From NCBI GenBank assembly GCA_963753345.1, contig CAVWBU010000024.1, positions 64,001-128,000 on the forward strand: a stretch of 64,000 nucleotides of DNA. Reading direction: 5' to 3'. Position numbers and translations under genes: made by a program. Of the stretch, positions 18,395-44,682 are shown in pieces. Every line of letters starts with the position of its first letter. Positions within the stretch are counted from its first letter, which is position 1. A model generated the notes under the pieces. The model ran no database searches, had not been told where the DNA came from, and saw only the letters and a list, made by a program, of their open reading frames with translations. Origin of the DNA: an uncultured Fibrobacterota bacterium (lineage in GTDB: Bacteria > Fibrobacterota > Chitinivibrionia > Chitinivibrionales > FEN-1185).

Positions 18395-18424
18395 TCTCTA
18401 TTTGAAAAGGAAAAAGGATTAACG

Positions 18425-19616
18425 ATGAAATATATAATATTAGTAGGCGACGGCATGGCCGACTTCCCCATCCCCGAGCTTGACAACCGCACACCGCTCG
18501 AATACGCCAGGACCCCGAACATGGACGCAGTGGCGAAGGCGGGCCGCGTGGGGCTCGTAAAAACCGTTCCCGACGGTGTCCCGCCGGGCAGCGACGTGGC
18601 CAACATGTCGCTTATGGGATACGACCCCGTGAAGTACTATTCCGGCCGCGCACCTATCGAGGCGGCGAGCATGGGAATCGCGCTTGACAAAACCGACGTG
18701 GCGTTCCGCTGCAACCTGGTGACGCTCAAGTGCGGGCTCATGGAAGACTATTCCTCGGGCCACATTGAGACGCCGGACGCACACGAAATAATTGCTGCTT
18801 TACAGAAGGAACTCGGCGCTCCGGCCGTGACATTCCATCCCGGCGTGAGCTACCGTCACCTCACCGTGATTTCTCATTTCCCGGATGGCAAGCTCGACTG
18901 CACGCCGCCGCACGATATTTCCGGAAAGGCCTACGGGGAACACCTTCCCTCGGGGTGCGGCCAGGATATTGTCCGGCGCCTCATGGAGGATGCCCGGCCC
19001 GTGCTTGCCTCCTCGCCCGTCAACAAACGGCGCGAAGCGCAGGGAAAAAAGCCCGCCACCGACATCTGGCTGTGGGGCCAGGGAAAGGCCGTGTGTGCTG
19101 CCCACGATGAAGGAACGGTTCGCGATTTCCGGGTCCGTGGTTTCGGCGGTGGACCTTGTGCGCGGCCTTGGCGTGCTGGCGGGACTCAACGTGCGCATCG
19201 TCCCGGGCGCCACCGGCTACCTCGGCACCAACTACGCCGGCAAGGTCGCGGCCGCCCGCGAGGCCCTTGCGAAAGAGGACTTCGCGTTCGTGCACGTGGA
19301 GGCGCCCGACGAGACCTCGCACGAGGGCGACCGCGAAAAGAAACTGCAGGCCATCGAGGAGTTCGACAAAAACGTCGTGGGCGAGGTGCTCAAATTCCGC
19401 GAAACATTCCCCGATCTCCGGATCATGGTGCTCCCGGACCACGCCACGCCCCTGTCGCTCAAAACCCATCACGCCGCGCCGGTTCCGTTTGCCGTGTGCG
19501 GAAAAGGCGTTGATCCGGACGGCAGTCTTGCGTATTGCGAAAAAGCCGCGGTTGGGAAAAAGATGTATACGGGAGTGACGCTGTTTGAGACGTTTATAAA
19601 AGGCAAATTTGAATAA
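18425..19616 (+). CDS. apgM: Cofactor-independent phosphoglycerate mutase, ApgM type (proposed homoserine kinase family); frameshift near 19091
   Basis: GDGMAD, TPLE.ARTPNMD, PPGSDVAN, HVEAPDE.SH.G, LPDHATP; halves joined across a GTGTGTG run. Confidence 0.88.
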
Positions 19617-21647: not shown

Positions 21648-22064
21648 ATGAGCTCCCTCTACCGTTTCGGCGTCTCGCTCGAAAAGAGCCTTATCGATGA
21701 TTTCGACAGGCACATCGGCGGCAGGAACTACCGGAACCGGTCCGAGGCCATCCGCGACCTTATCCGCGAGGACCTTGTCAAAAAGCAATGGCTCTGCGGC
21801 AACGAGGTTGCGGGAGCGGTGGTCATGAGCTACGACCACCACAAGCGCGAGCTTGTCAACAAGCTCATGGACATCCAGCACGATTTCCAGAAGATCATCA
21901 TCTCGAGCCAGCACGTGCACATCGACCACCACAACTGCATGGAGATCGTTGCCGTCAAGGGCAAGGCGCGGGACGTGGAAAAGCTGACAAGCCTTTTAAA
22001 AGCGCAGAAGGGCGTGAAACATGTCGCGCTGTCGATGAGCACCACGGGAGAGGGACTGGAGTAA
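21648..22064 (+). CDS. nikR: Nickel-responsive repressor NikR
   Basis: RFGVSL ribbon, NRSEAIRDLIR, YDHH, QHD, HVHIDHHNCMEI. Confidence 0.95.
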   Translation: MSSLYRFGVSLEKSLIDDFDRHIGGRNYRNRSEAIRDLIREDLVKKQWLCGNEVAGAVVMSYDHHKRELVNKLMDIQHDFQKIIISSQHVHIDHHNCMEIVAVKGKARDVEKLTSLLKAQKGVKHVALSMSTTGEGLE

Positions 22065-24891: not shown

Positions 24892-25718
24892 ATGAACAAA
24901 TCGTCATCCGTCAATACGACAATGCCCGTCCTCTTCCTCGGCCACGGCAGCCCCACCAACGCGATCGAGGACAACGAATTTTCGCGCGGCTGGCACAGGA
25001 TCGCGCAGACATTCTCTCGGCCCAAAGCCATTCTTTGCATTTCCGCGCATTGGGAAACGTGGGGCGCAATGGTAACGGCAATGGAAAAACCCCGCACCAT
25101 CCACGATTTCGGCGGGTTTCCAAGGGAGCTTTACGAAGTGCAATACCCTGCTCCGGGCAGCCCGGCACTTGCGGGTGAAGTCAAAAGGTTGTTGAACAAG
25201 AATGGGCTTATGCTCGATCATGAATGGGGCCTTGATCACGGCTGCTGGAGCGTTATTTCGCGCATGTATCCTGACGCCGGTATTCCCGTGGTGCAACTGA
25301 GTCTGGACACGTCGCGGCCCGCGCAGGAGCACTACAAAATCGCGCACGGAGCTGGCACCGCTCAGGTCACAAGGCGTGCTCATTGTCGGGAGCGGAAACA
25401 TGGTGCATAATCTCAGGCTGGTTGAGTTCACGCAGAGACACCATGAGCGACTTCAACAAGCCCTTCGGACTCGATTGGGCCATTGAGGCAAATGAGATTT
25501 TCGAGAAGTTGATTAATGATAATCTTCACAACAAACTGATCAATTACCAGTCCCTTGGAAAATCCGTTCGGCTCGCCGTTCCCACGCCGGAACACTACCT
25601 GCCGATGCTGTATGCGCTTGCGCTGAAGGAAAAAGGGGAATCGGTCGCCTTCTTTAACGACGTGCCGGTGGCGGGTTCGCTCACCATGACGTCGTTTGTG
25701 ACAACAACGACGGATTAG
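24892..25718 (+). CDS. ygiD: DODA-type extradiol dioxygenase (YgiD/LigB family); frameshifted
   Basis: GHGSP, ISAHW, TIHDFGGFP, GLDHG; GSGNMVHNL out of frame near 25390; PTPEHYLP in the second ORF. Confidence 0.85.
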
Positions 25719-29577: not shown

Positions 29578-29833
29578 TCGCAGTGTAAACGGGTTCAAGG
29601 GAGTGCTCGAGGCGTTCAGGATTCCCTTAAGTGAAGTGAACTAATGATGAAGGCTGGACATTGATTGATTTTTTGAACGGGCTGCGGTGGTTTTTTCTAT
29701 CGCAGCCATTATATTTTACGTCACCGCGCTCCCGTGATCGCGGCAGACACGGACGTCAAGGTTTTTTCATGCCTGAGAATAATCCAGCATGCCAAGACGT
29801 AATCCGGGTTCACGAGGGGGAAGTCCCGTAACC

Positions 29834-30136
29834 ATGACAATCTTTCGACATCAAAGCCTTTTCCGCATTTTTTCCGTCGTCGTCATCGCCGAGATGATTG
29901 CGATCGGCGGAATAATTGCGCCTCTGCACCATCACGACGATTTAAAGGACCACGACGATTGCCAGCTCTGCCTCGTTTCGCATCAGCCGGCCACCGATTC
30001 CCCTATTGTCCAGATCGCTCCGTCCGTCGCCGTAATCATCGATTATTATTCCGTGCCAAAGTCTCTTGTAAGACAATATGCTCAGTCATTCTTCTCCTCC
30101 CGCGCCCCGCCTTCCCTGCTCTGTTCCATCAGCTGA
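29834..30136 (+). CDS. DUF2946-like leader protein (hydrophobic segment, HHH, CxxC, C-terminal RAPP)
   Basis: LHHHDDLKDHDDCQLC...SSRAPPSL; paralog at 41784-42098. Confidence 0.75.
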   Translation: MTIFRHQSLFRIFSVVVIAEMIAIGGIIAPLHHHDDLKDHDDCQLCLVSHQPATDSPIVQIAPSVAVIIDYYSVPKSLVRQYAQSFFSSRAPPSLLCSIS

Positions 30137-30233
30137 TTCTTATTGGCAAGCGCCATCCGGTCGTTTGAATGTTTGTGCCGTGACGACCGAGCAGTGCGTC
30201 TTCTTTAGCAACAACAGATCCAGGGAGTTCACC

Positions 30234-31292
30234 ATGATTGAAAAAACATCTCGTGTAACGGCGCTTATCATTGCATCATTGCTGTCCTATGCCTGCGGAG
30301 GCGTCACCAATCCCGATATTTCCGCCATCGGCCAGGTGATCGGGAAATATACCAATGATACCTCCTCCGCGTTTTCCAAGAAGCCGACGCTTGAGCTCGG
30401 CGAAGTCGAGCTTATGCTTGACGCCGCGCTCAATCCCTATTTGACCGGCGCGTTCGTGTTGTCGCTCGGAACAAAGTCCATTGAGATCGAAGAGGCATAT
30501 GCCTCGGTGATCCGGGGATTGCCGCTCAATCTCGGCCTAAAGGCGGGGAAATACAGGTTGGGCTTTGGAAGGCTCAACCCGGCGCATCCGCATGCATATC
30601 CGTTCATCAGCACGCCGCATGTCATGGATCCGGGCATTGCCAAGCTGCTTCCGGGCGATGAGAGCTTTAATGACGTGGCGGTGCAGGCGTCGACATTGAT
30701 ACCCGTTGTCGGGAGCTGGGCCATTTCCATTTCCGGCGACCTGCTGCAGGGAGACTCGTTTCATCCCGACACCGTCACCGCAAATTTTGGCGGGCTCGGC
30801 AGGATTGTCAATTCATTCGTGATCGCGGACATGGTTCCTTCGGAGATCGGTTTTTCCCTGACGCAGGGAACGAACGATCCCCGGCAGGGAACAAAAACGC
30901 TTGTCGCCGGCGCCGATGTAAAGACAAAACTTGCGCTGTCTCCTGTTGTCAATGCAATCGTGCAGGGCGAATTGCTCTATAAGAATGCCGGCCACAGGGA
31001 TTCTCTCGGCATCTTCAGCACCGAAAATCGCATGGGATTCTATGCATTCACCGATTTCCGGTTCCAGGCCCATTACAATGCCGGTATTTTGTACGAGCAA
31101 TATCAGTCGCCAAACAATGCGGCCCAAACGGATCGCGGCATAAAACCCTTTGTGGGATTTGCCGTTCTTGAAGAAAGCACCCTTGTACGGTTGGCCTACG
31201 AGTACTTCATGCCTCAGTCGGAAAAGGCGTCGAGCACCGTGGAGCTGCAATTCCTTTTCAGCATGGGACCGCACAAGGCGCACCTGTTTTGA
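30234..31292 (+). CDS. Outer-membrane beta-barrel protein associated with metal ABC transporters
   Basis: NPDISAIG, E.EL...A.LNPY, IEEAY, FGRLN..HPH, C-terminal MGPHKAHLF. Confidence 0.75.
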   Translation: MIEKTSRVTALIIASLLSYACGGVTNPDISAIGQVIGKYTNDTSSAFSKKPTLELGEVELMLDAALNPYLTGAFVLSLGTKSIEIEEAYASVIRGLPLNLGLKAGKYRLGFGRLNPAHPHAYPFISTPHVMDPGIAKLLPGDESFNDVAVQASTLIPVVGSWAISISGDLLQGDSFHPDTVTANFGGLGRIVNSFVIADMVPSEIGFSLTQGTNDPRQGTKTLVAGADVKTKLALSPVVNAIVQGELLYKNAGHRDSLGIFSTENRMGFYAFTDFRFQAHYNAGILYEQYQSPNNAAQTDRGIKPFVGFAVLEESTLVRLAYEYFMPQSEKASSTVELQFLFSMGPHKAHLF

Positions 31293-31373
31293 CCAGGATT
31301 TTCAGGATTGGAAAGATTGCCCGGATCAAAAAAGGGAAGAAGACTTTTGATGATTAACAAAGGAGAACAAACC

Positions 31374-32282
31374 ATGGGAGCGCAATTAAGGATTGTGTAT
31401 GCAGGGATCCTCGTTTTGTTTCTATTGGCGACAGCGCCGACATCGGCGGCGATACGCATCGTGGCCGCGCTGCCGGATCTGGGTTCGATTGCGTCGTACA
31501 TCGGCGGCGACAACGTGGAAGTCTCGGCGATCGCCAAGGCGTCGTCCAACCCCCATTCTGTTGAGGTCTTCCCCTCGTACATGGCCAAAGTCTCGAAAGC
31601 GTCGGTATACCTGAAATGCGGACTAGGGCTTGACCAGTGGTCTGATGCGATCATCGACGGATCGCGAAATAACAAGATCATAACCGTGGATTGTTCAAAT
31701 GGAATTTCCGTTCTTGAGAAACCCACAGGCAAGGTCGATGCGTCTCTGGGAGACGTGCACCCCTTCGGCAATCCGCATTACTGGCTCAATCCGGAAAACG
31801 GCATCATCATCGCTCAAAACATTTTGGCGGAACTCCAGAAGATCGATCCGGCAAACGCCGCTGTGTATTCCGCACATTTCGAACAGTTCAAAAAGGAATG
31901 TCTTGACAAGACAGAAGCATGGAAGACAAGGCTGAAATTGCTCAACGGAGCAAAGATCATAACCTATCATTCTTCCTGGGCGTATTGGGCCGACGCTTTC
32001 GGATTTTCAATCGTTGCCAAGGTGGAACCGTACCCGGGCATACCGCCGACCGGCATTCACCTTGCCGATCTTGTCGGCGTCATCAAAAAGGAAAACGTCG
32101 CCTTCGTCATTCAGGAACCCTATTTTTCCGACGACGCCCCGCGTTTTCTCAATCGTCAAACAGGCGTCAAGGTGTTCAAATGCGCGCCGTCGTGTTCCGA
32201 TGTCACGCCATCGTCCTACTTTGATCATTTCGAAGGAATCACCAATCAATTGACCACCGCAGCCGGAGGAAAACAGCCATGA
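31374..32282 (+). CDS. Metal ABC transporter substrate-binding protein (ZnuA/TroA cluster)
   Basis: NPHSVE, GDVHPFGNPHYWL, TYHSSW, EPYPGIPPT. Confidence 0.9.
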   Translation: MGAQLRIVYAGILVLFLLATAPTSAAIRIVAALPDLGSIASYIGGDNVEVSAIAKASSNPHSVEVFPSYMAKVSKASVYLKCGLGLDQWSDAIIDGSRNNKIITVDCSNGISVLEKPTGKVDASLGDVHPFGNPHYWLNPENGIIIAQNILAELQKIDPANAAVYSAHFEQFKKECLDKTEAWKTRLKLLNGAKIITYHSSWAYWADAFGFSIVAKVEPYPGIPPTGIHLADLVGVIKKENVAFVIQEPYFSDDAPRFLNRQTGVKVFKCAPSCSDVTPSSYFDHFEGITNQLTTAAGGKQP

Positions 32283-33121
32283 TGCTTTTTCACTATTCTT
32301 TTATGCTCCCCGCGCTTGCGGTCTGCCTTGTTCTTGCCGGGGTCCATACGTATTTCGGGTACCATATTGTCCAGCGCGGCGTGATTTTTGTGGACCTTGC
32401 GCTCGCACAGATCGCCGCTCTCGGCGCAAGCGTGGCTATCCTTGTGGGCTGGGGAGAAAATGCGCCGTTCCTTAACTTCTGCGTCAGCCTCGCATTCACG
32501 CTGGGAGGAGCCGTGCTGTTTGCGTTCCTACGGAAGGGCCAGGACAAGGCGCCCATGGAAGCGCTTATCGGCATTGCCTATGCCGGCGCAATTGCGATTT
32601 CCCTGCTCGTGCTGGAGAAATCCGCCACCGGCACGGAACATATCAAAGAGATGCTGGTGGGCACCATTCTGACGGTTTCATGGCGCGAAGTTCTTCAACT
32701 CGGCGCCATCGTTCTCGTGGTGGCAATCATTCATTGGCTGGCAAGAAAAAAACTGTTTATGATTTCCGAAGATCCGGACAAAGCGGCGCAGAACCGTCTG
32801 CGTCTCTGGTGGTGGGACATCGTCTTTTACGCGACCTTCGGCGTGGTGGTCACCTCCTCGGTCAAAGTTGCCGGCGTACTTCTGATTTTTTCACTGTTGA
32901 TCATTCCCGCGGTGAGCGCGATGATCAGCACCTCGGGAACAATTAAACGGGTGGTGTTCGGCTGGGTTTTCGGCCTGGTCGGCTGCGTTCTCGGGTTGGA
33001 GGCTTCGCTCCGGGGGGATTTCGCGGCCGGCCCGGCGATAATCGCAACTTTGCTGGGGCTTCTGTTGCTATGCGCCGCGGCAGGACCCGCATTGAAGATT
33101 GTTCGGGCGGCAAGGAAATAG
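32279..33121 (+). CDS. Metal ABC transporter permease (ZnuB/ABC-3 type)
   Basis: RGVIFVDLALAQIAALG, EALIGI.Y, VK.AGVLLIFS.LIIPA. Confidence 0.9.
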   Translation: MMLFHYSFMLPALAVCLVLAGVHTYFGYHIVQRGVIFVDLALAQIAALGASVAILVGWGENAPFLNFCVSLAFTLGGAVLFAFLRKGQDKAPMEALIGIAYAGAIAISLLVLEKSATGTEHIKEMLVGTILTVSWREVLQLGAIVLVVAIIHWLARKKLFMISEDPDKAAQNRLRLWWWDIVFYATFGVVVTSSVKVAGVLLIFSLLIIPAVSAMISTSGTIKRVVFGWVFGLVGCVLGLEASLRGDFAAGPAIIATLLGLLLLCAAAGPALKIVRAARK

Positions 33122-33213
33122 GAATCCGCGGCACTTTTGCGTTCGTCAAGGCCTTCGACCGTTTCGTATCGGATGCATGAATGCCGCAACGATGATTCTG
33201 ATGCATTGCACCG

Positions 33214-34107
33214 TCAATCGATACCGTATTCGCCCTCGTTGATCCGTGCCCCTTCAGAGGCGCCGAAATTGGTGTCCCGGTACGCCACGGATACCGCGGA
33301 TTGATACACGTCAACGATCATGTACCCCGACCCGGGGAATCTGTCGATTGCCACCCAGTTCGGCAGGAGACGGACGTTGGTGAAAAACGGGATATTGTTA
33401 CGGAAGCCTGACCAGCGGGAATGAAGGTGGCCGGAAAAATACGCAAGGACGTTGTGATCGTCAAGGAGCCGGAACAGCTCGATTGAATTGAGAACGGCAT
33501 ACAGCGGCGTCTCGGGATGAAACGGATAATGTGAAAAAACCATGAGCGGCGTTTCCTTCGGGATGAAGGCGAGCATCTTCCTGAGCCACAGCTTCCTGGA
33601 TACCCCCACGGTAACCCACGGTTTCGTGTCGTTCGACAGATCGAGAAATATCAGCCCCACGTTCCTGTGGATCACAAGGTAATTTCCACGGTTCTCTCCG
33701 AACAGCGTGTAGTAGTTGTTCTTTCCCGCTTCGCCCACCGCCGTGATATCGTGGTTGCCGATAACCGGATAATACGGCTTTTCGAGTTTGTCAAAGTGCT
33801 CCTTCACCGATTTCATGATGGTGATGTTGCCGTGGTTCGTAAGGTCGCCTGCCACCACCGCGAATTCCCATTGCGGCACATCGTTCTTCCATTCGTTGAT
33901 GACTTTCGTCAGCATGACGCCGTCTTTTTCATCTCCCCGGTAATGGACGTCGTTGCTGAAAATGAAACGGAACCTGCGCTCGGAGCGCCGTTGGGAGATG
34001 CCCGGCGACGAGCAGCCCGGCAGAAAAGGCAGCGCAAGGGCCGACGCGGCAACCCGCACAAACCGGCGCCGCGGCATGGCGCCGCAGAAAATCTTGTTTT
34101 CGCCCAT
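33214..34107 (-). CDS. Calcineurin-like metallophosphoesterase, probable Tat lipoprotein
   Basis: RRRFV...LPGC; DVH, GDL, GNHD, HYP, GHLH motifs. Confidence 0.85.
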   Translation of the reverse strand: MGENKIFCGAMPRRRFVRVAASALALPFLPGCSSPGISQRRSERRFRFIFSNDVHYRGDEKDGVMLTKVINEWKNDVPQWEFAVVAGDLTNHGNITIMKSVKEHFDKLEKPYYPVIGNHDITAVGEAGKNNYYTLFGENRGNYLVIHRNVGLIFLDLSNDTKPWVTVGVSRKLWLRKMLAFIPKETPLMVFSHYPFHPETPLYAVLNSIELFRLLDDHNVLAYFSGHLHSRWSGFRNNIPFFTNVRLLPNWVAIDRFPGSGYMIVDVYQSAVSVAYRDTNFGASEGARINEGEYGID

Positions 34108-34354
34108 GAGATTGCGTTTCCTGTTCTCCCCGCCCACCCATCCAGGATTTCACCCCATGAGAGTATAAGAATTTTTCTGATGTTTTTCAAGCTAAAAATC
34201 CGAAACTTCCATGCTGTGGACTTACCGGTGGTAAATGGTTCGCATCTTGCATATCACTCAAGGCGGTAAACAACGGGCAGTATGAATTGCAGTCCTATCG
34301 GAGCATAGGGGAAGGGGCGGTCCGATGCATCGCATTGACTTCCACTAAAAAACC

Positions 34355-35299
34355 CTACTGCGGCACATGGGCTTTGCGCCAATTGCGGACGTTGGCGAGA
34401 CCGACGACCGCCGCAGGGCTGCCGTTTCTTGATCCCTGCGTGAAAAACCCCTCCGCCTCGTCGATGCGCTGCCGATCAAAGGCGATGCTGCCGGCAAGCA
34501 CGGCCATGTCCGCAAAGTTCGGGAAACGCTTCATGCCGTCACGGCAGGTCTCAAGCGCCACCAGCTGATTGCCGGATTGCTGCTGAAGCAATGCGATGCG
34601 ATAGAGGGTCCATTGTTTAGTTTTGTCAAGATCAAAGGCCATGGTGAGATAAGAAATGGAGCGGGGAATATCGCCCGCCTTTTCGTACAAGTCGGCAAGA
34701 AGCAGATAGACATATAAGGTGTTCTTTCCGTTCGGCGGGAATGATTCGAGCCATTTGATTGCCTCGTCCGCATCCCCCATGTCGCGATACATTTCCCCAA
34801 GAGCGATGTAGGCCTCCTCCACCTGTGGATACAGTCTGATTATGTTTTCAAAGGCTGCCACAGCCTTGGCAATTGCACCTACCCGGCGCAGCGTGGCTGC
34901 CTGGATCAGAAGCGCTTTCTGGTGAGTCGGGTCCAGTTTGAGCGTGCGTTGTATCGATGCAAGGCATCGGCCGAGGTCGTTGAGCTGGTAATAGCACACG
35001 GCAAGGTTGAAATTGGCCTTAAAAAAATTCGGTGCATTCTGGATGCATGCGCGATAGTAAACGACCGCTTCCGCAAGGCTGTCGAGCTGGAAATACGCGT
35101 TGGCCATATTGTAGTAGCACAGGGCTGGCGTCTCGCCTTCGCCGGCGGCCTTGCGAAAAAGCTTTATTGCCTGAAGGAAATTCCCGGCATTGTAGGCCTC
35201 ATCGGCCTGGGAAAGCGAGGTCGTGGCGGCGACAGGCATTGCCGCTGCAATGAGCATCAGGATGAAGAAAATCGTTTTTTTCATGACAGGCAAAGTCAC
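34355..35299 (-). CDS. Periplasmic TPR protein
   Basis: Signal peptide followed by multiple TPR repeats. Confidence 0.85.
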   Translation of the reverse strand: MTLPVMKKTIFFILMLIAAAMPVAATTSLSQADEAYNAGNFLQAIKLFRKAAGEGETPALCYYNMANAYFQLDSLAEAVVYYRACIQNAPNFFKANFNLAVCYYQLNDLGRCLASIQRTLKLDPTHQKALLIQAATLRRVGAIAKAVAAFENIIRLYPQVEEAYIALGEMYRDMGDADEAIKWLESFPPNGKNTLYVYLLLADLYEKAGDIPRSISYLTMAFDLDKTKQWTLYRIALLQQQSGNQLVALETCRDGMKRFPNFADMAVLAGSIAFDRQRIDEAEGFFTQGSRNGSPAAVVGLANVRNWRKAHVPQ

Positions 35300-35934
35300 T
35301 GATCAAGATTGAAGTGGATTACTTGACGGAACCGCTGGTTGACCGGAATCCCCTTGTTTCGTGCCGGTTTGAAGCGCCATAGCGCCACTCCCCGCTTGAC
35401 TTCTGCGGTGAACAAGGGCGATGACGATTTTGTGACCTGGATATCGGTTATTTTTCCCTCATGGGTTACAACGAATTCCACTTCGACCGTGCCTTTGATC
35501 CCCTGCTCGGCCGCGCGATCGGGATACGGGATGGGCGGCGTGTACTCCGGCGATGCGTCCTGGTCGACTTGGCCCTGCTCAAACACTTCGGCGGAAAGTT
35601 CCTGCTTTTGCAGCGCCACACCCGTTCCACCTTCCCCCGAAGCGTCAACGGTCAGGTCCGGCGCGAAACGCATGTTCATCTGTTTCTCAAGGGACCTTCC
35701 CTGGTTCGTCGGCGTTTGTACTTGGCGGATGCGCTGCTGCACCAGCTTTTTCTCCTCAGGAGGCTTGCGGACGATGTCCAATGCCGAAATCCTGCGCGGC
35801 TGCTGCTTGTCCGACTTGGAACCAAGACCCACTGCGGCATGCAGCAGCGAAACTCCGGTGAACAGAACAAAACTCACCACGACGGCAAGCGCCAGACGCC
35901 CGATCCACAGTGACCAATAGGAAACAATATTCAT
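35296..35934 (-). CDS. tonB: TonB-family energy transducer
   Basis: N-terminal TM; YP.RA.EQGI.G.VEVEFVV..EG, WRFKPA. Confidence 0.9.
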   Translation of the reverse strand: MNIVSYWSLWIGRLALAVVVSFVLFTGVSLLHAAVGLGSKSDKQQPRRISALDIVRKPPEEKKLVQQRIRQVQTPTNQGRSLEKQMNMRFAPDLTVDASGEGGTGVALQKQELSAEVFEQGQVDQDASPEYTPPIPYPDRAAEQGIKGTVEVEFVVTHEGKITDIQVTKSSSPLFTAEVKRGVALWRFKPARNKGIPVNQRFRQVIHFNLDQ

Positions 35935-35940
35935 GTGGCA

Positions 35941-36978
35941 TCAGTCCTTGCTTGCCGCGATTGATATCTTCTGCACACCCGCAAGAGTGCATTGGTCGAT
36001 TACCTCGACCGTCCTGCCGACCGATCCGTCCCGGTCAGACACGATAACCACCGAAATATCGGGCTGTTTGCCGACCTCCTGCTCCACAAGCGTGCGAACG
36101 CGTTCGACCGTGGTCTGGCGGCCGTAAATGTGCACCGTGCCTTCACGGGTGATTCCGATAAGTATCGCCTTCTGCCCGGCAGGACGTGCACTCTGCGCCT
36201 TGGGCTTTGAAACGTCCACGCCGGTTTCCACATACAGGTTAGCAGTGACCACGAAGAAGATCAATAAAATCATGATCGTGTCGACAAACGGCGCAAGGTT
36301 GATTTCAGGGTTCTGGTGTTCCTCCTGGAACGGGTTGTTGATGGGACGCATCGATCCTCCTTTGGAAGGTTCGGCCTTTGCCTCTGGACGGCCGCGCAGA
36401 AGTTTACTTAATAGTATGTCCCGGTCTTCGCGAAGGCCGGCAATAAGCTTTTCTTTTGCGGTATTGAGATAATTCAGGAACAAAAGCGACGACACGGCCA
36501 CTGCCAGACCGGTCAGCGTGGCCTCGAGCGCCATGGAAATACCGTTGGCCATGATTGTCGGATTGCCGAAACCGAACTCGCCGATAATGGCGAACATGCT
36601 GTTCATACCGGTGATGGTACCCAGCAGGCCCAAAAGAGGCGCCATAACGATGCAGGCGGTGATGGTAGAAAAACCGCGGTCGAGCCGGGGCTTTATTTGG
36701 ATCAAGAGCTCGTCGAAGGTGCGTTCAACCTGCTCAGGTTTGATTCCCGGCCTCAGGAGCCGGTTGACAAAAACGTCAAAGGCGGAGTAGCCTGTGCGCG
36801 TCGTCGGTCCCGCCTCTTGCGTCACCAGTATGGCGTGAACCCGTGTGCGCGCCTTGCGCAGCTGTGCAAAGCGGATCAGCTTTCCGAATACGATGTGCCA
36901 GACCACGACCGACACGGCAAAGATCGGAAACAGCACCCATCCGCCTTCATAAAAGAGCTTCAAAAACGGTGTGAACAC
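35941..36978 (-). CDS. ExbB and ExbD in one reading frame (ExbD has its own start at 36351)
   Basis: APLLGLLGTITGM (ExbB) then INLAPFVDTIMILLIFFVVT (ExbD); AAAGGAGG before the internal ATG. Confidence 0.85.
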   Translation of the reverse strand: MFTPFLKLFYEGGWVLFPIFAVSVVVWHIVFGKLIRFAQLRKARTRVHAILVTQEAGPTTRTGYSAFDVFVNRLLRPGIKPEQVERTFDELLIQIKPRLDRGFSTITACIVMAPLLGLLGTITGMNSMFAIIGEFGFGNPTIMANGISMALEATLTGLAVAVSSLLFLNYLNTAKEKLIAGLREDRDILLSKLLRGRPEAKAEPSKGGSMRPINNPFQEEHQNPEINLAPFVDTIMILLIFFVVTANLYVETGVDVSKPKAQSARPAGQKAILIGITREGTVHIYGRQTTVERVRTLVEQEVGKQPDISVVIVSDRDGSVGRTVEVIDQCTLAGVQKISIAASKD

Positions 36979-36981
36979 TTC

Positions 36982-38448
36982 TTATTCCTTAGGATAGACG
37001 GCATCGAGTATGGCAATCGTGTCATTCTCCAGGTCCGCCATGAGACGGTCCTTGGCGGAACGAAGCAAGTCATGGATAAAAAGTACAGGAATGGCAATGG
37101 CCAGACCGGTTTTCGCCGTAATAAGAGCCTCGGATATTCCACCTGCAAGAAACTTTGGGTCCCCGGTTCCATAGTGGGTGACCTCAGCGAACAGCGTGAT
37201 CATGCCGCTTATGGTTCCCAAAAGTCCAAGAAGCGGAGCTGCGCCCGCGATGACCGCCAGCGTATTGAGATTGCGGCGCAAGGGAGGGGTCTCTAGCGAC
37301 AGAATTTCGTACACGGCTCGTTCACCTGTCTGCCTGCCTCGGCTTTGTCGTTCAAGGCCGGCCTGAACTATGCGGGCAATTACCCCCTTCTTGCATGATT
37401 GCGCCCAAGCCAAAGCGGCGGCATAGTCTTTCTCATTAAGGAACTTCATTGCGGTGGCATATTGGCGCTTGAGCAGACGACCGCGCCCTGCATATTGAAG
37501 GATTTTGCCGATCGTCAGGTAAAGCACCCAGAAGGGAAGCATGAGCAGGGGAATCATTACCCAGCCGCCCTTGGCGAACGATTCGTACAACGCAAGCCAC
37601 GTAGATTGGCTTTTTCCGGCAATCAGCAAGCGGGCCTGGTCATTCTGCATCACCTCCATGAGCACATTTCCGGAAATGCGGCCGGTCGAAAGCCATTTAG
37701 GGAACTGTTCTGTCAATTTTGCCGCAAGCTGGGGCGCCGCGATCTTTTCCACGGAATACCGTTCAGCGCCCAGCCTGCCTGTTTGGCGCAGATAAAAGCA
37801 CGTTCCCGCGGCCGAGTCGATGCCGTAGCCGAATACGTTGCCGAAACGCGAAATTGTCAGTTGTTTCGGCCCGCCTTCTTCGGGGAGGACCACCGCCCTG
37901 GTGAGCATTATGGAATCGCCGCGGCCGTACCATGCCAGCCGGTAATTGACAAAGTCTCCAAAGGCCGCGGCGAGCGAATGATGTTCGTCTAGGGACGCCC
38001 GGATCTTTTCGAGCTCGGCGCGGCGGATCTCCTTGTCGAGCGGAAAGACCTCAAGGAGGCCGTCCGCTTCTTTCTGAAAAATGTCCTTGATCTGGTTTTG
38101 CAGGTATGTCCACTCATCCTTTTTCGCTTCGAGGTTTTTGACTTCATCCGCGAGCGACTGTTCGCGGCTGAGTTCTTCTTCCTTGATCCGCGCGAGTTCC
38201 GTCTCCATGCGGTCTTGCTGTTCGTGCAGCTTGTCGAACTGGTCCTTGTTTGCCTCTTTCATTTCCACGGCCTGCTGCTTGACCGAGTATTCCTTTGTAA
38301 TGAGCTCCTGCAGGCTGTCGCGCGCCTTGTCGAGGGAGTTCTGGAGTTCCTTGCGTTCCGCTTCCTTCATCGCCTGGATCTTTTCGGCCTTGCCGGCAAA
38401 AGATACCGTGACCGTAAGGAAAAGAATTGCGAAAAGTATCTTTTTCAT
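36982..38448 (-). CDS. Long MotA/TolQ/ExbB protein (TtpC-like)
   Basis: Signal, coiled coil, then APLLGLLGTISGMI, GGISEALIT. Confidence 0.88.
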   Translation of the reverse strand: MKKILFAILFLTVTVSFAGKAEKIQAMKEAERKELQNSLDKARDSLQELITKEYSVKQQAVEMKEANKDQFDKLHEQQDRMETELARIKEEELSREQSLADEVKNLEAKKDEWTYLQNQIKDIFQKEADGLLEVFPLDKEIRRAELEKIRASLDEHHSLAAAFGDFVNYRLAWYGRGDSIMLTRAVVLPEEGGPKQLTISRFGNVFGYGIDSAAGTCFYLRQTGRLGAERYSVEKIAAPQLAAKLTEQFPKWLSTGRISGNVLMEVMQNDQARLLIAGKSQSTWLALYESFAKGGWVMIPLLMLPFWVLYLTIGKILQYAGRGRLLKRQYATAMKFLNEKDYAAALAWAQSCKKGVIARIVQAGLERQSRGRQTGERAVYEILSLETPPLRRNLNTLAVIAGAAPLLGLLGTISGMITLFAEVTHYGTGDPKFLAGGISEALITAKTGLAIAIPVLFIHDLLRSAKDRLMADLENDTIAILDAVYPKE

Positions 38449-39273
38449 TTTGCGCCCCCTTGTCCCGCGTCGACGCCAAGAGGGAGATTTACAAACGCTG
38501 GCAGTGATTTTCCTTCCCGGATGTTAACCGCCTGAAGGATCATCATGGCGGTGCCCGGCGAATTCAGGTTCTTCCAGTGAGGAGCGCCGTCGTTTCCCCA
38601 TCCTGTGAAAACGGCGCATTTCTCCCCCTTGGTGTCAACTACCGCCTCGAAGATGGTCCCGATGCGCAAGACGGTAAACCATGCCTGGAATGTCGGGCGT
38701 CGGCGAGCTTTCCTGCGAAACCTGGATGCCGGAGCTGGCTTCGTCGAGCTTGTTAAGGATCTGCACCAGCCGCGTACAGCCTTCGACAATGTCGACCGAT
38801 TTGGTGGCCAGGTCATTGATAAGAAGGGAAAGGCCGGAGAGCGTGGGCGCCATGATAAGCGGCGGAAGCCTCTTTACCGCCGGAGTAACGTTGTTGCAAA
38901 AGGAGATCAGTTTCTGGCGGAACTCGTCCTGCGACAGCTCGATCTCATGGCGTTGCGCAAGCACGCCGCTGATCCGGGCTGCGAGCGCCTCATTGGCTCG
39001 CGACTGGACGGTGGTCTCGGACTTCAAAGTATCAAGCTGACTCTGTGTCTGGGCCAGATGCTGGGAAGTGCGTGCACGGTAAGCATCGAAGTCTTGTTTG
39101 TCCTTTTCCATTTCCTGGCCTACTCGCTCGGCGTCTACCTGCGATTGTATGAGTTCCTTTCGCAGCCGCGCGATTTCATCATCGATCGACGGGGGCGCGA
39201 CCTGGGCCGCGACTGCAAAGGCGCAGAACGCCAATGCCGCCGAGAATTTCACCGAGCGAACCATCTTTTTCAT
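38445..39273 (-). CDS. DUF3450-like periplasmic coiled-coil protein; frameshift near 38665
   Basis: Signal plus coiled coil; LRIG motif in the second frame; sits before the long ExbB. Confidence 0.65.
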
Positions 39274-39382
39274 GTGCTTAGTCTCCATTCAGAAAAATCT
39301 TTTTGCAATTCGCACGATTGCCGGAATTGGGATGAAGGGCCTGCGGTTTTTCGCGGGCAGGCCCTTCACCACACGTATAGAA

Positions 39383-41520
39383 TTATGTCTTCAAACGCAG
39401 TCCAACATACAATTGCCTTCCACGCAATGGCCCCCAAATATGCGAGGTATTGAAATTGCCTTGAGCATCCCAATAGTGAGGATCGTCGCGGGCTGACCCT
39501 GTCTGGGTGTAGTTGAGCAGATTCTCGGCTCCCGCATACAGGTCCAGCGCCTTAAGCAGCTTCCAACTCGCTTTCATGTTGACCACGAAAAAACCTGGTG
39601 CCTGAGTGAGTTTGGGATCGCTTGCTACGCCGTTTTCAAAAACATTGTATTGATTTGCATAGCCGTACGGCGTCAGGTCTCGCGGCGCGGTCCAGGCCAC
39701 GTCTCCGGAAAGTGAAGCAGGTCCATAATTCATTTCGACGCGTCCGTTGACTTCGGTTTCCATGGCCGCCACCAGTTCTACTGCTTTGTATTGATCGGGA
39801 ATCTGCTGGTGTTCGACGCCTATGCCTAGCTTAAGCCATGACCATGGAAGAAAAGAGGCTTCGGCATCCACATCCAAAAACGGAAGCTGGATACTATCAT
39901 TTCGCAAGATGGGACGGGGTAAAGTCGAATCGTTGTCAACATATTCCAGATTAGAGACCTCGGTGAAATAACTGCCGACGGTTACGTTCCATTGCGACTT
40001 ATCGAAAGAAAGCGAGCCGCCGACTCCTTCGGCACTCTCCAGCTTATGAACGCCAATGTCGAAGCCGTTATCCAACAGGCCATGATCAAGTTCAAAGAAA
40101 GTGAGGGGCGCGCGCCAGCCCAAACCCGCAGACAGACGTCCCGTAAGGCCTTCGATAAACTCCCAACGCAGGCTCGCCCTCGGCGCGGCTATGAAATTGT
40201 CGATTTTTTCGCCGGGCTTATTGATCCAATTAACCTCAATATCATCCAGGCGCAGCGCCAGGGACAGGTCGCGCTGATGTCCGAAGTTCCACACGTCCTG
40301 CAAGTAACCGCCTCCGAAAGTTGCGTTATAAGAATCCGGAGTAATTCCAAGGACTTGGTAATAGTAGATGGGATTGCGACGCCATTCTTCTCGATGTTTC
40401 CGTCAATGCCCAGCGTAAGGGTGTTGGCCCAGGCGGTTGCCTGCCAGCGTAAGTCCCCCACAAAGTTATTGTCAGAATTGTTGTAATCCGCGCCGCCCTC
40501 ATATTCGGACACCTGCGATTGGCTGGCCATGCCCGCCCGCAACTGCCAAGTGCCCAGGTGCGGCGAATCCCACGTTAGCGTGCCCGCAGCCTTCGTCTCG
40601 AGTTGTTTGGACCCATTCAATAATATCCTGATTGGATTGCCTATAAAGGTATTTCGCACTACATTCCCTCCTACGTAGAGCGGAATCGAATCCGACGGCC
40701 CGACAGCCGCGCCCATGTGATTGGATGTCATCGCCGCGCCGAAAACCTCCGAATAGCTGTGCATGTACCGCAGATTCCACGACCAGTTTTCGCCAATAAG
40801 ACCGTTCAGTCTCAACAAGGCGCTTTCGTCGTTGAGAGACGGAGACTCCGAAACGCCATTGCCGTCGGCATCCCATTGTCCTTCATAAAAGTGATGCGCA
40901 GCAACGAGAATGCCGAGTTTCCCGCTGTCTACCACCGCCGTTCCTGAGAACGAAAGATGATTCCAATCATTATTGCCTATAGCGGCGTCGGCAGTGATGG
41001 AATTACGGATAGGGTCACGAAAACGAACATCCATGGCACCACCCATGGCGCCTGGAGCCAGGAGAGAAGCGCCAGGCCCGCGCGAGATATCAATGTCCGT
41101 GACTCCGGCCGTGGTGAGCGCGTCAACGCCGTAGAAACTCGTTACGGGAGTGTAAATCGGAAGGCCGTCGACAAGAACGGTTGTATGATTTGCGCCCAGG
41201 CCATTGATCTGAATTTGCTTGAAACCGCATGAACTGCATCCCGTCAGGACGCAGACGCCCGGTTCGGACGTCACCGCTTGAGTAAAATCATCCGCATTTT
41301 TGAGAAAGATGGCCTCGGGCGTAACAATGTTGGTTGGCTGGATTGCATTTGACAAAGCGCCCAGGCGGTCCAACCGGGCTTCGTTGAGCCTTTGGGTCGT
41401 GACGGTCATCGTGTCGAGCAAGTGTATTTTTTGCAAAGAGGAATCCACGTTGGTTTGCGCCTGTGCAAAACATGCAAAAGTAAAAAGAACGGTCACCACG
41501 AACAAAAACGATTTACGCAT
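39383..41520 (-). CDS. TonB-dependent receptor with CxxC in the plug; several frameshifts
   Basis: PGV..LTGCSSCG..IQINGLG..HT.VLVDG.P, DISRGPGA, ENLLNY, WGPLRGRQLYVGLR; start may be 41601. Confidence 0.85.
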
Positions 41521-41783
41521 GGGATTATTTGAAATAACAATTCCTGAAAACCCGCGTACGTATTGTAGTTGATATATCAATAATTCCAAATTGAATTTCA
41601 TATGCCTCCCGAGTCGCATGGTTAAACACATTGCTTTAAGGAATAAGCGCTGAAAGCCCGGGAGAGTTCGGCCTATTTATTTAGATGCTCCGTCTGAATT
41701 ATATATGCGTTGTGCGTAGATAATTTAGACTTGGAGTATCTTATTTGCCTCCCTGGCTGGTCAGCAAATAAAGGCGAAGTGTT

Positions 41784-42098
41784 TTAAGAAACCGAGATCA
41801 AAGCGGGAGGTGCGCGGCTATCAAAAGAGGACAAAATGCCGGGAATGCAATAGTGGACTACGTGGCGAGGCAATTCGACGATGTAATCGGCGACCGTTGG
41901 AAGAGAAAAAACCACTTCAGCCACAGGGGCGTTGTTCTGCATGGTGCAGAAGACGCAATCATCATGGTCCAGACCGTCACTATGGTGGTGGGCAGGTAGG
42001 GCAATGCCCAAAAAGAAGCAGATATATAGCGAGAAGAAAATCTTTAAAAAAAGATTTTTTTGTATAGCTTGAAAAAGGAAAAGCGGTTTATCGCGCAT
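41784..42098 (-). CDS. DUF2946-like leader protein (hydrophobic segment, HHH, CxxC, C-terminal RAPP)
   Basis: AHHHSDGLDHDDCVFC...DSRAPPAL. Confidence 0.75.
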   Translation of the reverse strand: MRDKPLFLFQAIQKNLFLKIFFSLYICFFLGIALPAHHHSDGLDHDDCVFCTMQNNAPVAEVVFSLPTVADYIVELPRHVVHYCIPGILSSFDSRAPPALISVS

Positions 42099-42281
42099 AA
42101 TAAGCTATCGAACTACGTATTGGAAACGCGTTTATTGACGATCTTTTTCCGGTTCGTCCCTCCGAATATTTCAAAGAACAAGAAAAGCCAAATCGATCAA
42201 TCAATCGATATTTTCACTTTTCTCCAAAGTGTGTCAAGAACAACAAGAAATCCATCGCTACGAGACCAGGACAGGTATTTA

Positions 42282-44507
42282 TCAAAACTTGGTCGTCAGG
42301 CTCAGCCGAAAGCTGAGCGGCTCTGACGGATGGATTTCAAAGTCGTTGACGCCCGCGGCAGGCTCTCCTTTGAGGCGGGTCGCATAGTAATATTCCATAT
42401 CATTGACTTGCGCGTTAAAGATATTTAATACGTCAAGCGTGAGCCGCACATTGCGATTGAAATCGTAGGCAATTTGGCCGTTAAAGAGCGTAGAAGCCGT
42501 TGACCGCTCGCTGTTGTCCTGAACAAGCGCCCGAGGGCCAAAGTAGCGCATAAAAAGGCTTGCCGAAAACGGACCAAGCCTATGAATAGAAGCGCCGGCC
42601 GACACGGCCGTCTCAATGGCTTCCGGTACATATTGTCCATCCGTATCGGGGTTAATAAAACGGGCCTGAGAATACGCCACGTCGAGGTCAAAGAGCAGCC
42701 AGGGCAACGGCTGCCAGCGTTCGCTCCACTCGACACCCATCCGGCGGGACGGCGCCGAGGGGTCGGTGGTTCCTTCGTCTGCGTCCCATACCAGTTCGGA
42801 GCTGAAATCCTGAAGCCACAGGGCGAGAGAATTTTGCAATCCGGGGATGACATCGTTGCGTCCGCCGATTTCAAATCCTCGCGACCGCACAAGAAGTGTC
42901 ACTTTGTCAACGGAATCGCCGGACTTCTCATTTATGGTTGCGGTGGCGCCGCGGACATCGTTTGAGTGATACCCGTCCCCGTAATTGGCATACAACTCGG
43001 TTTTTGCCCATGGCCCCAAAACAACCGTTACCTTGGGGAGAAGCATGCTCGCTTCCGCACTCCCGGAGTTTACCGTGTAGTCTGAACGCACATCGGCATT
43101 AAGATATACCCCTCTCAGCCCGAGCATAACCTTTATCCAGGGCGTAAGCCGGCTGTCCAGATCAACCCACGGTTCAATTTTTGTTTCCACGACGCTGTCC
43201 ACGCCCCAGGATTCGAGCACACGGCGGTGATCGGTGTGCAGCAGTCCCACCGGATCAATCAGATCGCAACGCGCGTCGAGGCCTGCCCGGAATTTTTCCT
43301 GGAGGCCAAGCAACGAGAATTCCCGCTGCCAATTGTCCGATGTTCCAAAGAACCATCTGTTGTCTTTCTGGTTCATCTGATCCCCGTTCACCGTGTCGTC
43401 AAGAAAGTAGGTGAAATTTGAGAAAAGATTCATGTAGTACTGGACAACGTATGCGTTGGCAGAAAGCACGCCGCCTCCGAGCTGTCCTTTCCAGGAGGTT
43501 GAAAGGCTGTAGCGGTGAGACGTGCCGCCGTCGCTGGAGTCCTCGGTGCCCCAGATGCTGATGAGGCCTTCGGTCACGGCCCGCTGCGGGATATGGTTGG
43601 TGGCATTCCATTCACCGGAATAACCCATTGCCTCTATGTCAAAGGTTCCATCGCCGAGCTGGCGCGACCAGCGCAACATGCCGTTAAACTTGTTGAAGTC
43701 CTGGGGAACAACAAACGGTCCATCCTGGTGCATCGCCTCCAATCCGAGAAGAAGTTTGCCGCCGGCCAGATCGGTGGATGCGGCGGCAAGGGAACGGTAG
43801 TAGCCATAGGAGCCGATCGTTGCAGTCACAAAAGGGTGGGCAAGCTGCTTGTCATAGAAAATGTTGATCGCTCCCGCGGAAGAGAAATCGCCCTCTGCCG
43901 CGTTGTAGGTTCCCTTGAAATAGTCGGCATGATCGATAAGTTCCGGAATAACGAAATTGAGATCGTCGTAGCCCTGACCGTGGCCTTGCGTTGGCAGGTT
44001 GACCGGTACGCCATCGACCGAAGTTGCAAAGTCGGTCCCATGGTCGAGGTTGAAACCGCGCAACAGAAACTGATTTGCCTTGCCTGCGCCGCTGTGCTGG
44101 GTGACGATGAGTCCGGGAACAAGTTCTTCAACTTCGCCGGGCCGAAGGATCGGACGGTCTTCCAGAAGCTGACTGGTGTAGGACCCGCTGCTGGCGGCTT
44201 CGGTGGTTCCTGTTTTGTTCTGATAATGCCCGAGCACATTTATCGGTGCGAGTTCCGTTATTCCTGTCTTCGTTTTCGCGGCCTTGGCCGTCTGGGCGTT
44301 GGAATCGGTTGCCGCCTTGGCGCTGTCATTGGAAACCGCAACTGCCGAATCGCTTTCCACCGGAACCGGTATCTCGTCGGGATGAGGAACCTCGGCATGG
44401 GATAAGCCTGCAAGAAACAGTACCGCGAGGATAAAACGATGAGCCTGCGAGAATAGAAATCCGGGGCGACCATCCGCTAAACGCACTAAACAAGCTCTCT
44501 TTGTCAT
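42282..44507 (-). CDS. TonB-dependent receptor, probably for nickel
   Basis: PGLIVTQHSGAGKANQF.LRGFNLDHGTDF plug, terminal F; divergent from nikM with NikR-type boxes between. Confidence 0.9.
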   Translation of the reverse strand: MTKRACLVRLADGRPGFLFSQAHRFILAVLFLAGLSHAEVPHPDEIPVPVESDSAVAVSNDSAKAATDSNAQTAKAAKTKTGITELAPINVLGHYQNKTGTTEAASSGSYTSQLLEDRPILRPGEVEELVPGLIVTQHSGAGKANQFLLRGFNLDHGTDFATSVDGVPVNLPTQGHGQGYDDLNFVIPELIDHADYFKGTYNAAEGDFSSAGAINIFYDKQLAHPFVTATIGSYGYYRSLAAASTDLAGGKLLLGLEAMHQDGPFVVPQDFNKFNGMLRWSRQLGDGTFDIEAMGYSGEWNATNHIPQRAVTEGLISIWGTEDSSDGGTSHRYSLSTSWKGQLGGGVLSANAYVVQYYMNLFSNFTYFLDDTVNGDQMNQKDNRWFFGTSDNWQREFSLLGLQEKFRAGLDARCDLIDPVGLLHTDHRRVLESWGVDSVVETKIEPWVDLDSRLTPWIKVMLGLRGVYLNADVRSDYTVNSGSAEASMLLPKVTVVLGPWAKTELYANYGDGYHSNDVRGATATINEKSGDSVDKVTLLVRSRGFEIGGRNDVIPGLQNSLALWLQDFSSELVWDADEGTTDPSAPSRRMGVEWSERWQPLPWLLFDLDVAYSQARFINPDTDGQYVPEAIETAVSAGASIHRLGPFSASLFMRYFGPRALVQDNSERSTASTLFNGQIAYDFNRNVRLTLDVLNIFNAQVNDMEYYYATRLKGEPAAGVNDFEIHPSEPLSFRLSLTTKF

Positions 44508-44623
44508 CGACGCCCCTTTCTGTGAGCTACTGCACATTGGATAGTTTAGCCGTAGGCCGCAGTTGTCTTTCGTAACCATGATTCTCTATGCTGATCAAAC
44601 ATAACTGCTAACGCCTTACCGTG

Positions 44624-44682
44624 GTAGCATGAATATACCTTTTGTGCTACGAATGATAGCATAAAAATGTTTTTCATGCCAC
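44624..44682. promoter_or_regulatory. Two tandem NikR-type operators
   Basis: GTAGCA-N15-TGCTAC (44624-44650) and ATAGCA-N15-TGCCAC (44656-44682). Confidence 0.7.

Follow-up and report, generated by a model that had tools for sequence, protein, structure and literature searches.

Why two small open reading frames (ORFs) built to one plan should head two converging metal-uptake units is the question raised by a 64,000-nucleotide (nt) stretch of DNA from an uncultured Fibrobacterota bacterium (contig CAVWBU010000024.1, positions 64,001 to 128,000; hereafter the window). The original prediction took the two ORFs for metal-sensing arrest peptides akin to the DUF2946 protein CruR, with Zn/Ni-type targets, and saw in them a possible extension of that mechanism beyond copper. 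On the computational evidence collected here the preferred reading of the two leaders is a pair of zinc-type, CruR-like translational switches within a single metal island. That they are regulatory arrest leaders is very probable, and that they sense a metal nearly as probable; the complete reading, in which both are cis-acting, zinc-sensing arrest peptides of a His-cluster subfamily and govern one small regulon, has about an even chance of being right.

Both ORFs are real and conserved. They code for proteins of 100 and 104 amino acids (aa) and, just as had been described, each carries a hydrophobic segment, the motif HHHxDxxDHDDCxxC, and SRAPP close to its end, the stop codon lying 7 (leader 1) or 6 (leader 2) codons past it; the CxxC-to-RAPP spacing is 43 residues in both. 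A DNA pattern of the full layout has exactly two matches in the window, the leaders themselves, and none in 100 shuffles. Genome-wide (4.5-Mb assembly) there are 723 R[AG]PP words in the six frames, eight of them near a stop codon with an upstream CxxC, and only the two leaders add the hydrophobic segment and the His cluster. Hydropathy over 19 residues is 2.3 for each leader and 1.6 or higher for 124 of 129 relatives, and both leaders possess the export signal or transmembrane (TM) segment of the DUF2946/CruR family. As in that family, each is the first gene of its unit and is followed by a long gap, of 97 nt before the gene of a 16-stranded porin (leader 1) and of 182 nt before that of a TonB-dependent receptor (leader 2); the claims that each ORF precedes an outer-membrane uptake gene and that the units converge (unit 1 on the plus strand, unit 2 on the minus strand) were thus confirmed. 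The leaders share 24% identity in an alignment of 24 sequences and are old paralogs. In the AlphaFold leader model residues 6-31 form a helix, the His/Cys loop is a confidently folded unit (predicted local distance difference test, pLDDT, 93-96), and the linker is extended; Foldseek found no match to the model in the PDB, and an Rfam scan of the window gave no family.

This layout recalls CruR (Bp2923, DUF2946/PF11162) of Bordetella pertussis, described as a copper-specific peptide that requires RAPP, CxxC and a spacing of 45 +/-2 between them and acts via Rho (Roy et al. 2022, PMC9426467), and whose arrest was shown in vitro (Fujiwara et al. 2025, PMC12992588). Like CruR, the leaders are first genes of uptake operons with an outer-membrane transporter, have an export signal, CxxC, RAPP near the C-terminus and a C-rich 3' end, and are followed by a long intergenic region. 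They differ from it in size (about 100 vs 145 aa) and spacing (43 vs 45), in the HxHxDxxxH cluster directly after the helix, and in having no counterpart to the N-terminal half of the Pfam model, where a semi-conserved upstream Cys (VCSxxG) is located; this Cys is dispensable in CruR (PMC9426467). Their targets are a porin-znuA-znuB unit and a receptor with CSSC in its plug, not copper genes, their stall codons are predicted to pair with the next Shine-Dalgarno (SD) sequence, and they occur in Fibrobacterota and other phyla. SecM, another arrest peptide, is released by a pulling force and controls translation of the next gene. Both properties are given for SecM-type peptides in PMC9973294, and these, together with ApdA and ApdP (PMC10951233), share the RAPP/RAGP stall motif with the leaders; unlike the leaders, they lack a metal site and serve as monitors of protein export.

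The assignment to a CruR/DUF2946-like class of arrest leaders is supported by the Pfam match, the motif spacing, the position and the conservation. Relatives of the leaders occur in 11 of 41 genomes, among them 7/7 in the family, with two copies in each of the 5/5 other genomes of the genus; with a wider profile they are found in 47 of 151 genomes of the phylum. One close homolog bears the label Chitinivibrionales, and a relative is also present in Fibrobacter strains of the rumen. Among 18 distinct leaders of relatives the CxxC-to-R[AG]PP spacing is 43 in 15, 42 in one and 44 in one, the remaining one being broken. A profile search returned 947 clusters at E<=0.001; the best 150 were taken and one 3269-aa repeat protein was dropped, and both motifs are present, 41-46 residues apart (43 in 84 cases), in 143 of these 149 best relatives, a count partly circular because the profile favours that layout. 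The stall motif of the 143 is RAPP (110), RSPP (19), RGPP (13) or RDPP (1). Across the family the core P-x-H-H-H-x-D-x3-H-x-D-C-x2-C is conserved, and the linker diverges while layout and spacing stay fixed. HHHxDxxDHDDCxxC, correct for both window leaders, is too strict as a family motif, since its exact form occurs in only 7 of 150 relatives and HxHxDxxxHxxCxxC describes them better. A second strongly hydrophobic stretch lies in the CxxC-RAPP linker of 56 of 129 relatives and is absent from both window leaders; it could give a membrane-insertion pull on the stalled chain.

The additional His cluster separates the leaders from the copper-linked proteins sampled for comparison, a canonical set of 120 sequences related to one control locus and representing a single betaproteobacterial clade. 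The cluster is present in 123 of 142 His-type leaders vs 0 of 105 canonical proteins scored, in which the CxxC-to-RAPP spacing is 43-45, and VCSxxG in 0/149 His-type vs 120/120 canonical sequences. As the spacing is shared but the His cluster is present and VCSxxG absent, the leaders appear to form a His-cluster subfamily that is separate from the sampled DUF2946 clade and works like CruR. Two observations speak against so close a kinship. The DUF2946 search that the original prediction proposed did match both leaders, but at 21.1 (leader 1) and 21.3 bits (leader 2), below the cut-off of 23.7, and over profile positions 51-117 only, the C-terminal half; the domain is matched at E<=0.1 by 21 of 24 close relatives and stands in the precomputed annotation of two relatives. 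Moreover, a profile-profile comparison with the sampled canonical clade gives a weak likeness (probability 41%, E 3e-4), confined to the CxxC-to-RAPP stretch.

The nature of the signal can be approached through the genes that the leaders precede. The GTDB and metagenome searches used an exact DNA pattern with spacing 43 only, which covers about 67 of 150 relatives; the GTDB leader genomes were taken by title and are mostly metagenome bins, some of which may be mis-binned. By these titles they belong to Fibrobacterota, Nitrospirota, Eisenbacteria, Krumholzibacteriia, Gammaproteobacteria, Deltaproteobacteria, Acidobacteriota, Bacteroidota, Spirochaetota, Pirellulaceae and others. A porin gene lies downstream of 30 of their 48 distinct leaders (with znuA too in 28), a TonB receptor gene comes first in 13, and neither is found in 5. 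The metagenomes yielded 88 loci with 75 distinct matches (one with an internal stop), and the 54 leaders with at least 600 nt downstream are followed by a porin (34), a receptor (14), znuA (1) or none of these (5). When the first two ORFs after the leaders were compared with Pfam (91 in all, without the duplicates of one locus), 21 matched ZnuA and none a copper family. Of the 13 receptors, 4 have ZnuD as their best NCBIfam model, always below cut-off, and a copper receptor model is absent from the NCBIfam matches listed for the 13. Three His residues occupy the ligand columns in all 27 leader-linked binding proteins aligned. Such a three-His set is the ZnuA pattern, shared by TroA-type Mn/Zn proteins. 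The copper-homeostasis genes that stand downstream in the DUF2946/CruR family thus appear to be missing from the His-type loci.

Zinc is on these grounds fairly likely to be the main signal. It is improbable, yet deserves weighing, that the leaders are arrest sensors for a metal other than zinc (copper, the signal of CruR, or else Mn, Co or Ni) and that this metal is what their targets import. The CxxC is the copper ligand of CruR, on which zinc has only a moderate effect (PMC9426467). In the present genome, COX1 (heme-copper oxidase) and NiFe hydrogenase genes are found, nikR and cbiMNQO lie nearby, and relatives have Nramp genes nearby; one leader heads a DUF1007 + NicO pair, and leader 2's receptor, whose cargo is not assigned, has an invariant CSSC in its plug. 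Set against this are the 91 downstream ORFs without a copper family, as compared with a PCuAC-like gene, recognized by sequence reading, downstream of 2/3 canonical DUF2946 control loci (a small context control, three loci out of 151 gammaproteobacterial genomes), as well as the three-His binding proteins, the ZnuD-like receptors and the separate operators of the Ni/Co module. The heme-copper oxidase also counts against zinc itself, as do a fur-family + znuA, znuC, znuB operon elsewhere in the genome that no leader precedes, and the general facts that the cargo of ZnuA-family proteins can be Mn, Fe, Ni or Co and that CxxC binds Cu(I) well.

The Zn/Ni-type targets of the original prediction are therefore to be divided: zinc-type is upheld for leader 1 and most relatives, and nickel is unsupported because the adjacent Ni/Co module has NikR-like operators of its own. 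This module, the second receptor and cbiMNQO, is without a RAPP leader, and in relative G005 it lies on another contig from the leader-2 operon; nickel as the lead signal was set aside. GTAGCA-N15-TGCTAC palindromes, which we take to be NikR operators from the shape of such operators, were found in 5 of 8 loci and are conserved in relatives; those of the window are likely NikR operators. Leader 2 as an internal gene of the Ni/Co receptor unit was also considered and ruled out as the principal reading, because the element in front of it persists where leader 2 and that unit are not linked.

For leader 2, the kinship of leaders across operon types bears on the signal. There are 48 pairs of leaders at least 60% identical in which one precedes a porin and the other a receptor operon (up to 95%, L062 and L076), and the relatives of leader 2 at 54-65% identity head porin operons. 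Since near-identical leaders head both operon types, units 1 and 2 likely read one signal. The cross-type pairs are also evidence that the leader is a cassette copied between porin-znuA and CSSC-receptor operons; it is always first in its unit and is duplicated along with it.

How an arrested ribosome could switch the next gene is suggested by the RNA. In the lowest-energy fold of both loci the Pro-Pro region is paired with the SD of the next gene, and the balance tips towards occlusion of the ribosome-binding site as the main output. Codons 83-100 of leader 1 are identical to those of the ortholog in relative G001 at 54/54 nt, the linker at 65/96. In unit 2 the stall codons and the intergenic region are conserved under a replaced leader (G005) and after a shift of the stop codon (G004); its hairpin has a fold z of -2.5 vs shuffles, and in six sequences 57 pairs are 95.6% paired, with six pairs changed on both sides, above all 500 shuffles, the consensus having been derived from the same six related sequences and the SD helix comprising one compensated pair and one mismatch. 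Once the ribosome-covered codons are masked, opening the start region costs 5.9 instead of 11.4 kcal/mol (leader 1) and 7.2 instead of 11.3 kcal/mol (leader 2). Across 60 non-redundant loci the drop reaches at least 2 kcal in 31 with the native window. Pairing of the SD to the stall window averages 0.36 vs 0.17 after synonymous recoding; of the 48 loci whose length allowed folding, 34 have the higher value in native form, and the first Pro codon is CCU in 37 of 59 loci vs 9.5 expected (5/64 were dropped, having too few background codons). The SD pairing signal across homologs is moderate.

Several results do not favour occlusion. A control window also gives a drop of at least 2 kcal in 17 of the 60 loci. 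In simple folds of 51 loci, only 10 show pairing of the SD with the stall window at p>0.5, and in only 4 does masking cut SD pairing by more than 0.2. Eight porin-type loci yield no consensus structure; for the leader-1 region the fold is no better than that of shuffled sequences (z -0.6), and in its 5-sequence consensus the SD has another partner, a pyrimidine stretch upstream of RAPP. C-rich codons would be selected as a Rho site too, and the P values of the locus counts overstate because the loci are related. The same sensor may accordingly work, as in CruR, through Rho-dependent termination, the stalled ribosome hiding a C-rich Rho utilization (rut) site and release by metal letting Rho act intergenically; SD pairing would then be a by-product of C-rich codons. 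This output is considered unlikely to be the principal one, even though all 51 loci have more C than G at RAPP and 49 of the 51 have it over the preceding 60 nt as well, a skew absent in downstream genes, a synonymous C-minus-G excess is found in 53 of 59 non-redundant loci, the genome has rho, and the gaps of 97 and 182 nt resemble the 162 nt of CruR (PMC9426467). An unstructured rut site needs nothing of the long, conserved leader-2 hairpin with its changes on both sides, and masking lowers the opening cost in both loci. The sign of control would be unchanged, and both outputs could act together; either gives stall = on and metal = off, the logic expected for importers.

With SD occlusion as the output, the proposed switch would run as follows. 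The leader is translated and its N-terminal helix, seen in sequence and model, would anchor the chain, whereupon the ribosome would stall at RAPP with the first Pro in the P site, as shown for ApdA, ApdP and CruR. According to the predicted folds, the stalled ribosome would cover the codons that pair with the next SD, so that the porin-ZnuA-ZnuB and receptor-ExbBD-TonB units are translated. When zinc is plentiful, it would bind the His3-4/Asp/Cys2 site, 43 residues upstream of the stall and just outside the tunnel or translocon; by analogy with CruR, folding of this site would free the chain, the ribosome would terminate, the hairpin would close and uptake would cease. CutF of Rhodobacter capsulatus (PMC9973294; 10.1101/2025.02.05.636593) is comparable in being an exported leader with a metal site (Cys in CutF) about 45 residues before a Pro-rich stall motif and in its translational output, with a stem-loop hiding the next SD, as predicted here. 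It differs in having CxxxC instead of a His cluster and CxxC, and in stalling on copper binding, which turns on a detoxifying oxidase; because the targets here are importers, metal should release the stall, the opposite of CutF. A broader proposal can be put forward tentatively, at somewhat less than even probability: the widespread His-cluster RAPP subfamily would be a dedicated zinc sensor whose stall codons, serving as an anti-SD gate, control a portable, cassette-copied regulon (an as yet undescribed His-lined zinc porin, ZnuA/B, CSSC-plug receptor), zinc being read by a nascent membrane-anchored peptide, possibly in the periplasm.

It is quite unlikely that the leaders are no metal switches at all, being instead small membrane-anchored metal chaperones, or arrest peptides monitoring export or disulfide status, in operons governed by Fur/Zur-family repressors. 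The confidently folded His/Cys loop of the model would suit such a function. A Fur-family gene is the immediate upstream neighbour of the leader in G018 and L055, and in G033 it is the second gene upstream; RAPP peptides are, moreover, known as monitors of Sec/YidC and from positions ahead of thioredoxin-like genes (PMC12992588). A fixed CxxC-to-RAPP distance across a freely diverging, unstructured linker speaks against it, as do the strong avoidance of RAPP words in ordinary proteins (PMC12992588), the nucleotide-level conservation at the stall codons, and the constant first place of the leader, duplicated with its unit. Fur-family genes directly upstream of a leader on the same strand were noted at L031:7812-8521, L055:740-1480 and L033:5901-7961 (the last with an Nramp gene); transcriptional and translational control may be stacked there.

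Features of the two units, their leaders and the neighbouring Ni/Co module (positions in the window)
Feature	Position	Strand	Basis or remark
Leader 1	29834..30136	+	100 aa: TM helix 6-31, HHHxDxxxHxDCxxC, 43-residue linker, RAPP, 7-codon tail
Leader 2	41784..42098	-	104 aa: TM segment, HHHxDxxxHxDCxxC, 43-residue linker, RAPP, 6-codon tail
Anti-SD stretch, leader 1	30111..30118	+	Second Pro codon and next codons; pairs with 30221-30227 in predicted fold
SD of porin gene	30221..30227	+	Pairs with 30111-30118 in predicted fold
Long conserved mRNA hairpin, unit 2	41605..41810	-	Closes Pro-Pro-Ala codons 41804-41810 onto receptor SD 41605-41611
Porin, 16-stranded, outer-membrane, 352 aa	30234..31292	+	Family without Pfam or NCBIfam model
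ZnuA-family binding protein, three His ligands	31308..32282	+	Pfam PF01297; best PDB match zinc-uptake ZnuA; ligand columns
ZnuB/AztB-type permease	32279..33121	+	Pfam ABC-3, NCBIfam AztB
TonB-dependent receptor, invariant CSSC in plug	39383..41601	-	Pfam plug and barrel; alignment of 7
DUF3450 protein	38445..39288	-	Single gene in relatives, frameshifted here
ExbB, long N-terminal domain	36982..38448	-	Library match
ExbB-ExbD fusion	35941..36978	-	Fused in relatives also
TonB	35296..35934	-	Library match
TPR protein, conserved last gene of unit 2	34355..35299	-	Library match and relatives
Candidate promoter element, unit 1	29778..29801	+	AATAA-N14-ACGTA type; equal distance before both leaders
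Candidate promoter element, unit 2	42114..42136	-	15 nt before leader ATG; kept in G005, where unit 2 is not beside the upstream receptor gene
Second (Ni/Co-type) receptor	42282..44579		Upstream of leader 2; divergent from cbiMNQO
Tandem GTAGCA-N15-TGCTAC palindromes	44624-44682		Between Ni/Co-type receptor and cbiMNQO; second copy degenerate here
nikR gene	21648-22064		

The porin of unit 1, which nearly always stands before znuA, was modelled by AlphaFold from an alignment of 22 sequences as a 16-stranded barrel (pLDDT 88), and Foldseek matches it to porins in the PDB. In that alignment H118, H120, H347, H350, E59, E87 and E246 are invariant, the His pairs forming HxH in loop 3 and GxHxxH at the extreme C-terminus, and the protein is a candidate zinc-selective porin. 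An ATPase gene is missing from the porin-znuA-znuB unit, here and in G001, G003, G005, G007 and G033; the unit may borrow ZnuC from the leaderless fur-znuACB operon, which lies on contig C31. In the receptor of unit 2 the CSSC occupies the plug position where other receptors bind their ligand, and no close solved relative was found for this protein. The receptor and DUF3450 genes are frameshifted in this assembly and whole in G002, G004 and G005. Compared with relatives, single-base insertions lie near 26418, 29427, 38667, 40368, 40387 and 40589 and leave katG, the DUF3450 gene and the receptor gene split or truncated. Because these isolated insertions strike katG and the DUF3450 gene as well, an assembly error is likely, and a receptor pseudogene is disfavoured. 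The dioxygenase gene at 24892-25718 and a gene at 18266-19616 also appear split.

Of 111 leaders, 25 have the AATAA-N13/14-ACGTA element in front of them, and it occurs likewise before groES, dxs, antitoxin and other genes (G000 C36:15504, C15:166949, C21:203654). Since it precedes housekeeping genes too, it is probably a lineage promoter, and a candidate for the promoter consensus of these Fibrobacterota, unlike sigma-70; a metal-regulator box was ruled out on the same ground. In several leader loci the ATG lies 11-15 nt past the element, which would give nearly leaderless mRNAs. No convincing Fur/Zur-like palindrome was seen upstream of the leaders, and scans of either locus detected no intrinsic terminator on the coding strand between leader and target.

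Mechanisms of this class are known, and their extension beyond copper, raised as a possibility in the original prediction, was anticipated in print: Ozturk et al. 2023 (PMC9973294) described 5,334 CutF-like proteins in 29 clusters, not all of them copper-specific, with His-only clusters beside HupE/UreJ, and already gave His-rich, probably Ni/Co-type clusters; Fig. 6B, the logos of Fig. S6 and File S1 of that article may already hold the present subfamily or znuA neighbours. According to Fujiwara et al. 2025 (PMC12992588), whose main text makes no mention of zinc or ZnuA, RAPP upstream ORFs often stand ahead of TonB receptor genes, and the first half of a metallostasis review (PMC11672702) mentions neither CruR nor CutF. 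In the literature searched, which was thin on subscription papers, no published test of a zinc-responsive RAPP leader was found. The present locus contributes a pair of paralogous leaders heading converging units, the cassette evidence, and the contrast with the neighbouring NikR-type module. Metal sensing by arrest peptides after transcription has been shown for copper alone (CruR, CutF). If the leaders respond to zinc, they would constitute a Zur-independent, translation-level zinc switch across many little-studied phyla, and a marker assigning zinc uptake to uncharacterised porin and TonB receptor families; both loci are short and portable. According to Roy et al. (PMC9426467), no riboswitch has been described for Cu or Zn, and the leaders, if so confirmed, would be the protein counterpart of the zinc riboswitch noted there as missing.

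Small first genes of zinc-related, Zur-controlled operons are known also in DUF2607 (Vibrio ZrgD, PMC9817125) and Caulobacter CC2720 (DUF2946, PMC4176598), compared here by description only, in passages that give no arrest-peptide role; unlike the present leaders, CC2720 heads an efflux operon. DUF2607 is a feature look-alike of leader 2 (score 0.93). As zrgD it is the first gene of the Zur-regulated zrg zinc-uptake operon in a tractable organism (PMC9817125), and it may be a further unrecognised arrest leader.

Some loci depart from the usual arrangement. G018 (L032:561-790) has a frameshift-broken leader before an intact porin-znuA-znuB unit, and in G006 (L036:5025-5333) an intact leader is followed only by a glycosyltransferase-like fragment; both are possible cases of decay or rearrangement. 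In G133 (C149:1210-2224) two leader matches lie 500 nt apart, and L083 carries two leaders within 5 kb (5001-5185 and 9806-9990) at the heads of tandem units, a receptor unit and then a porin unit.

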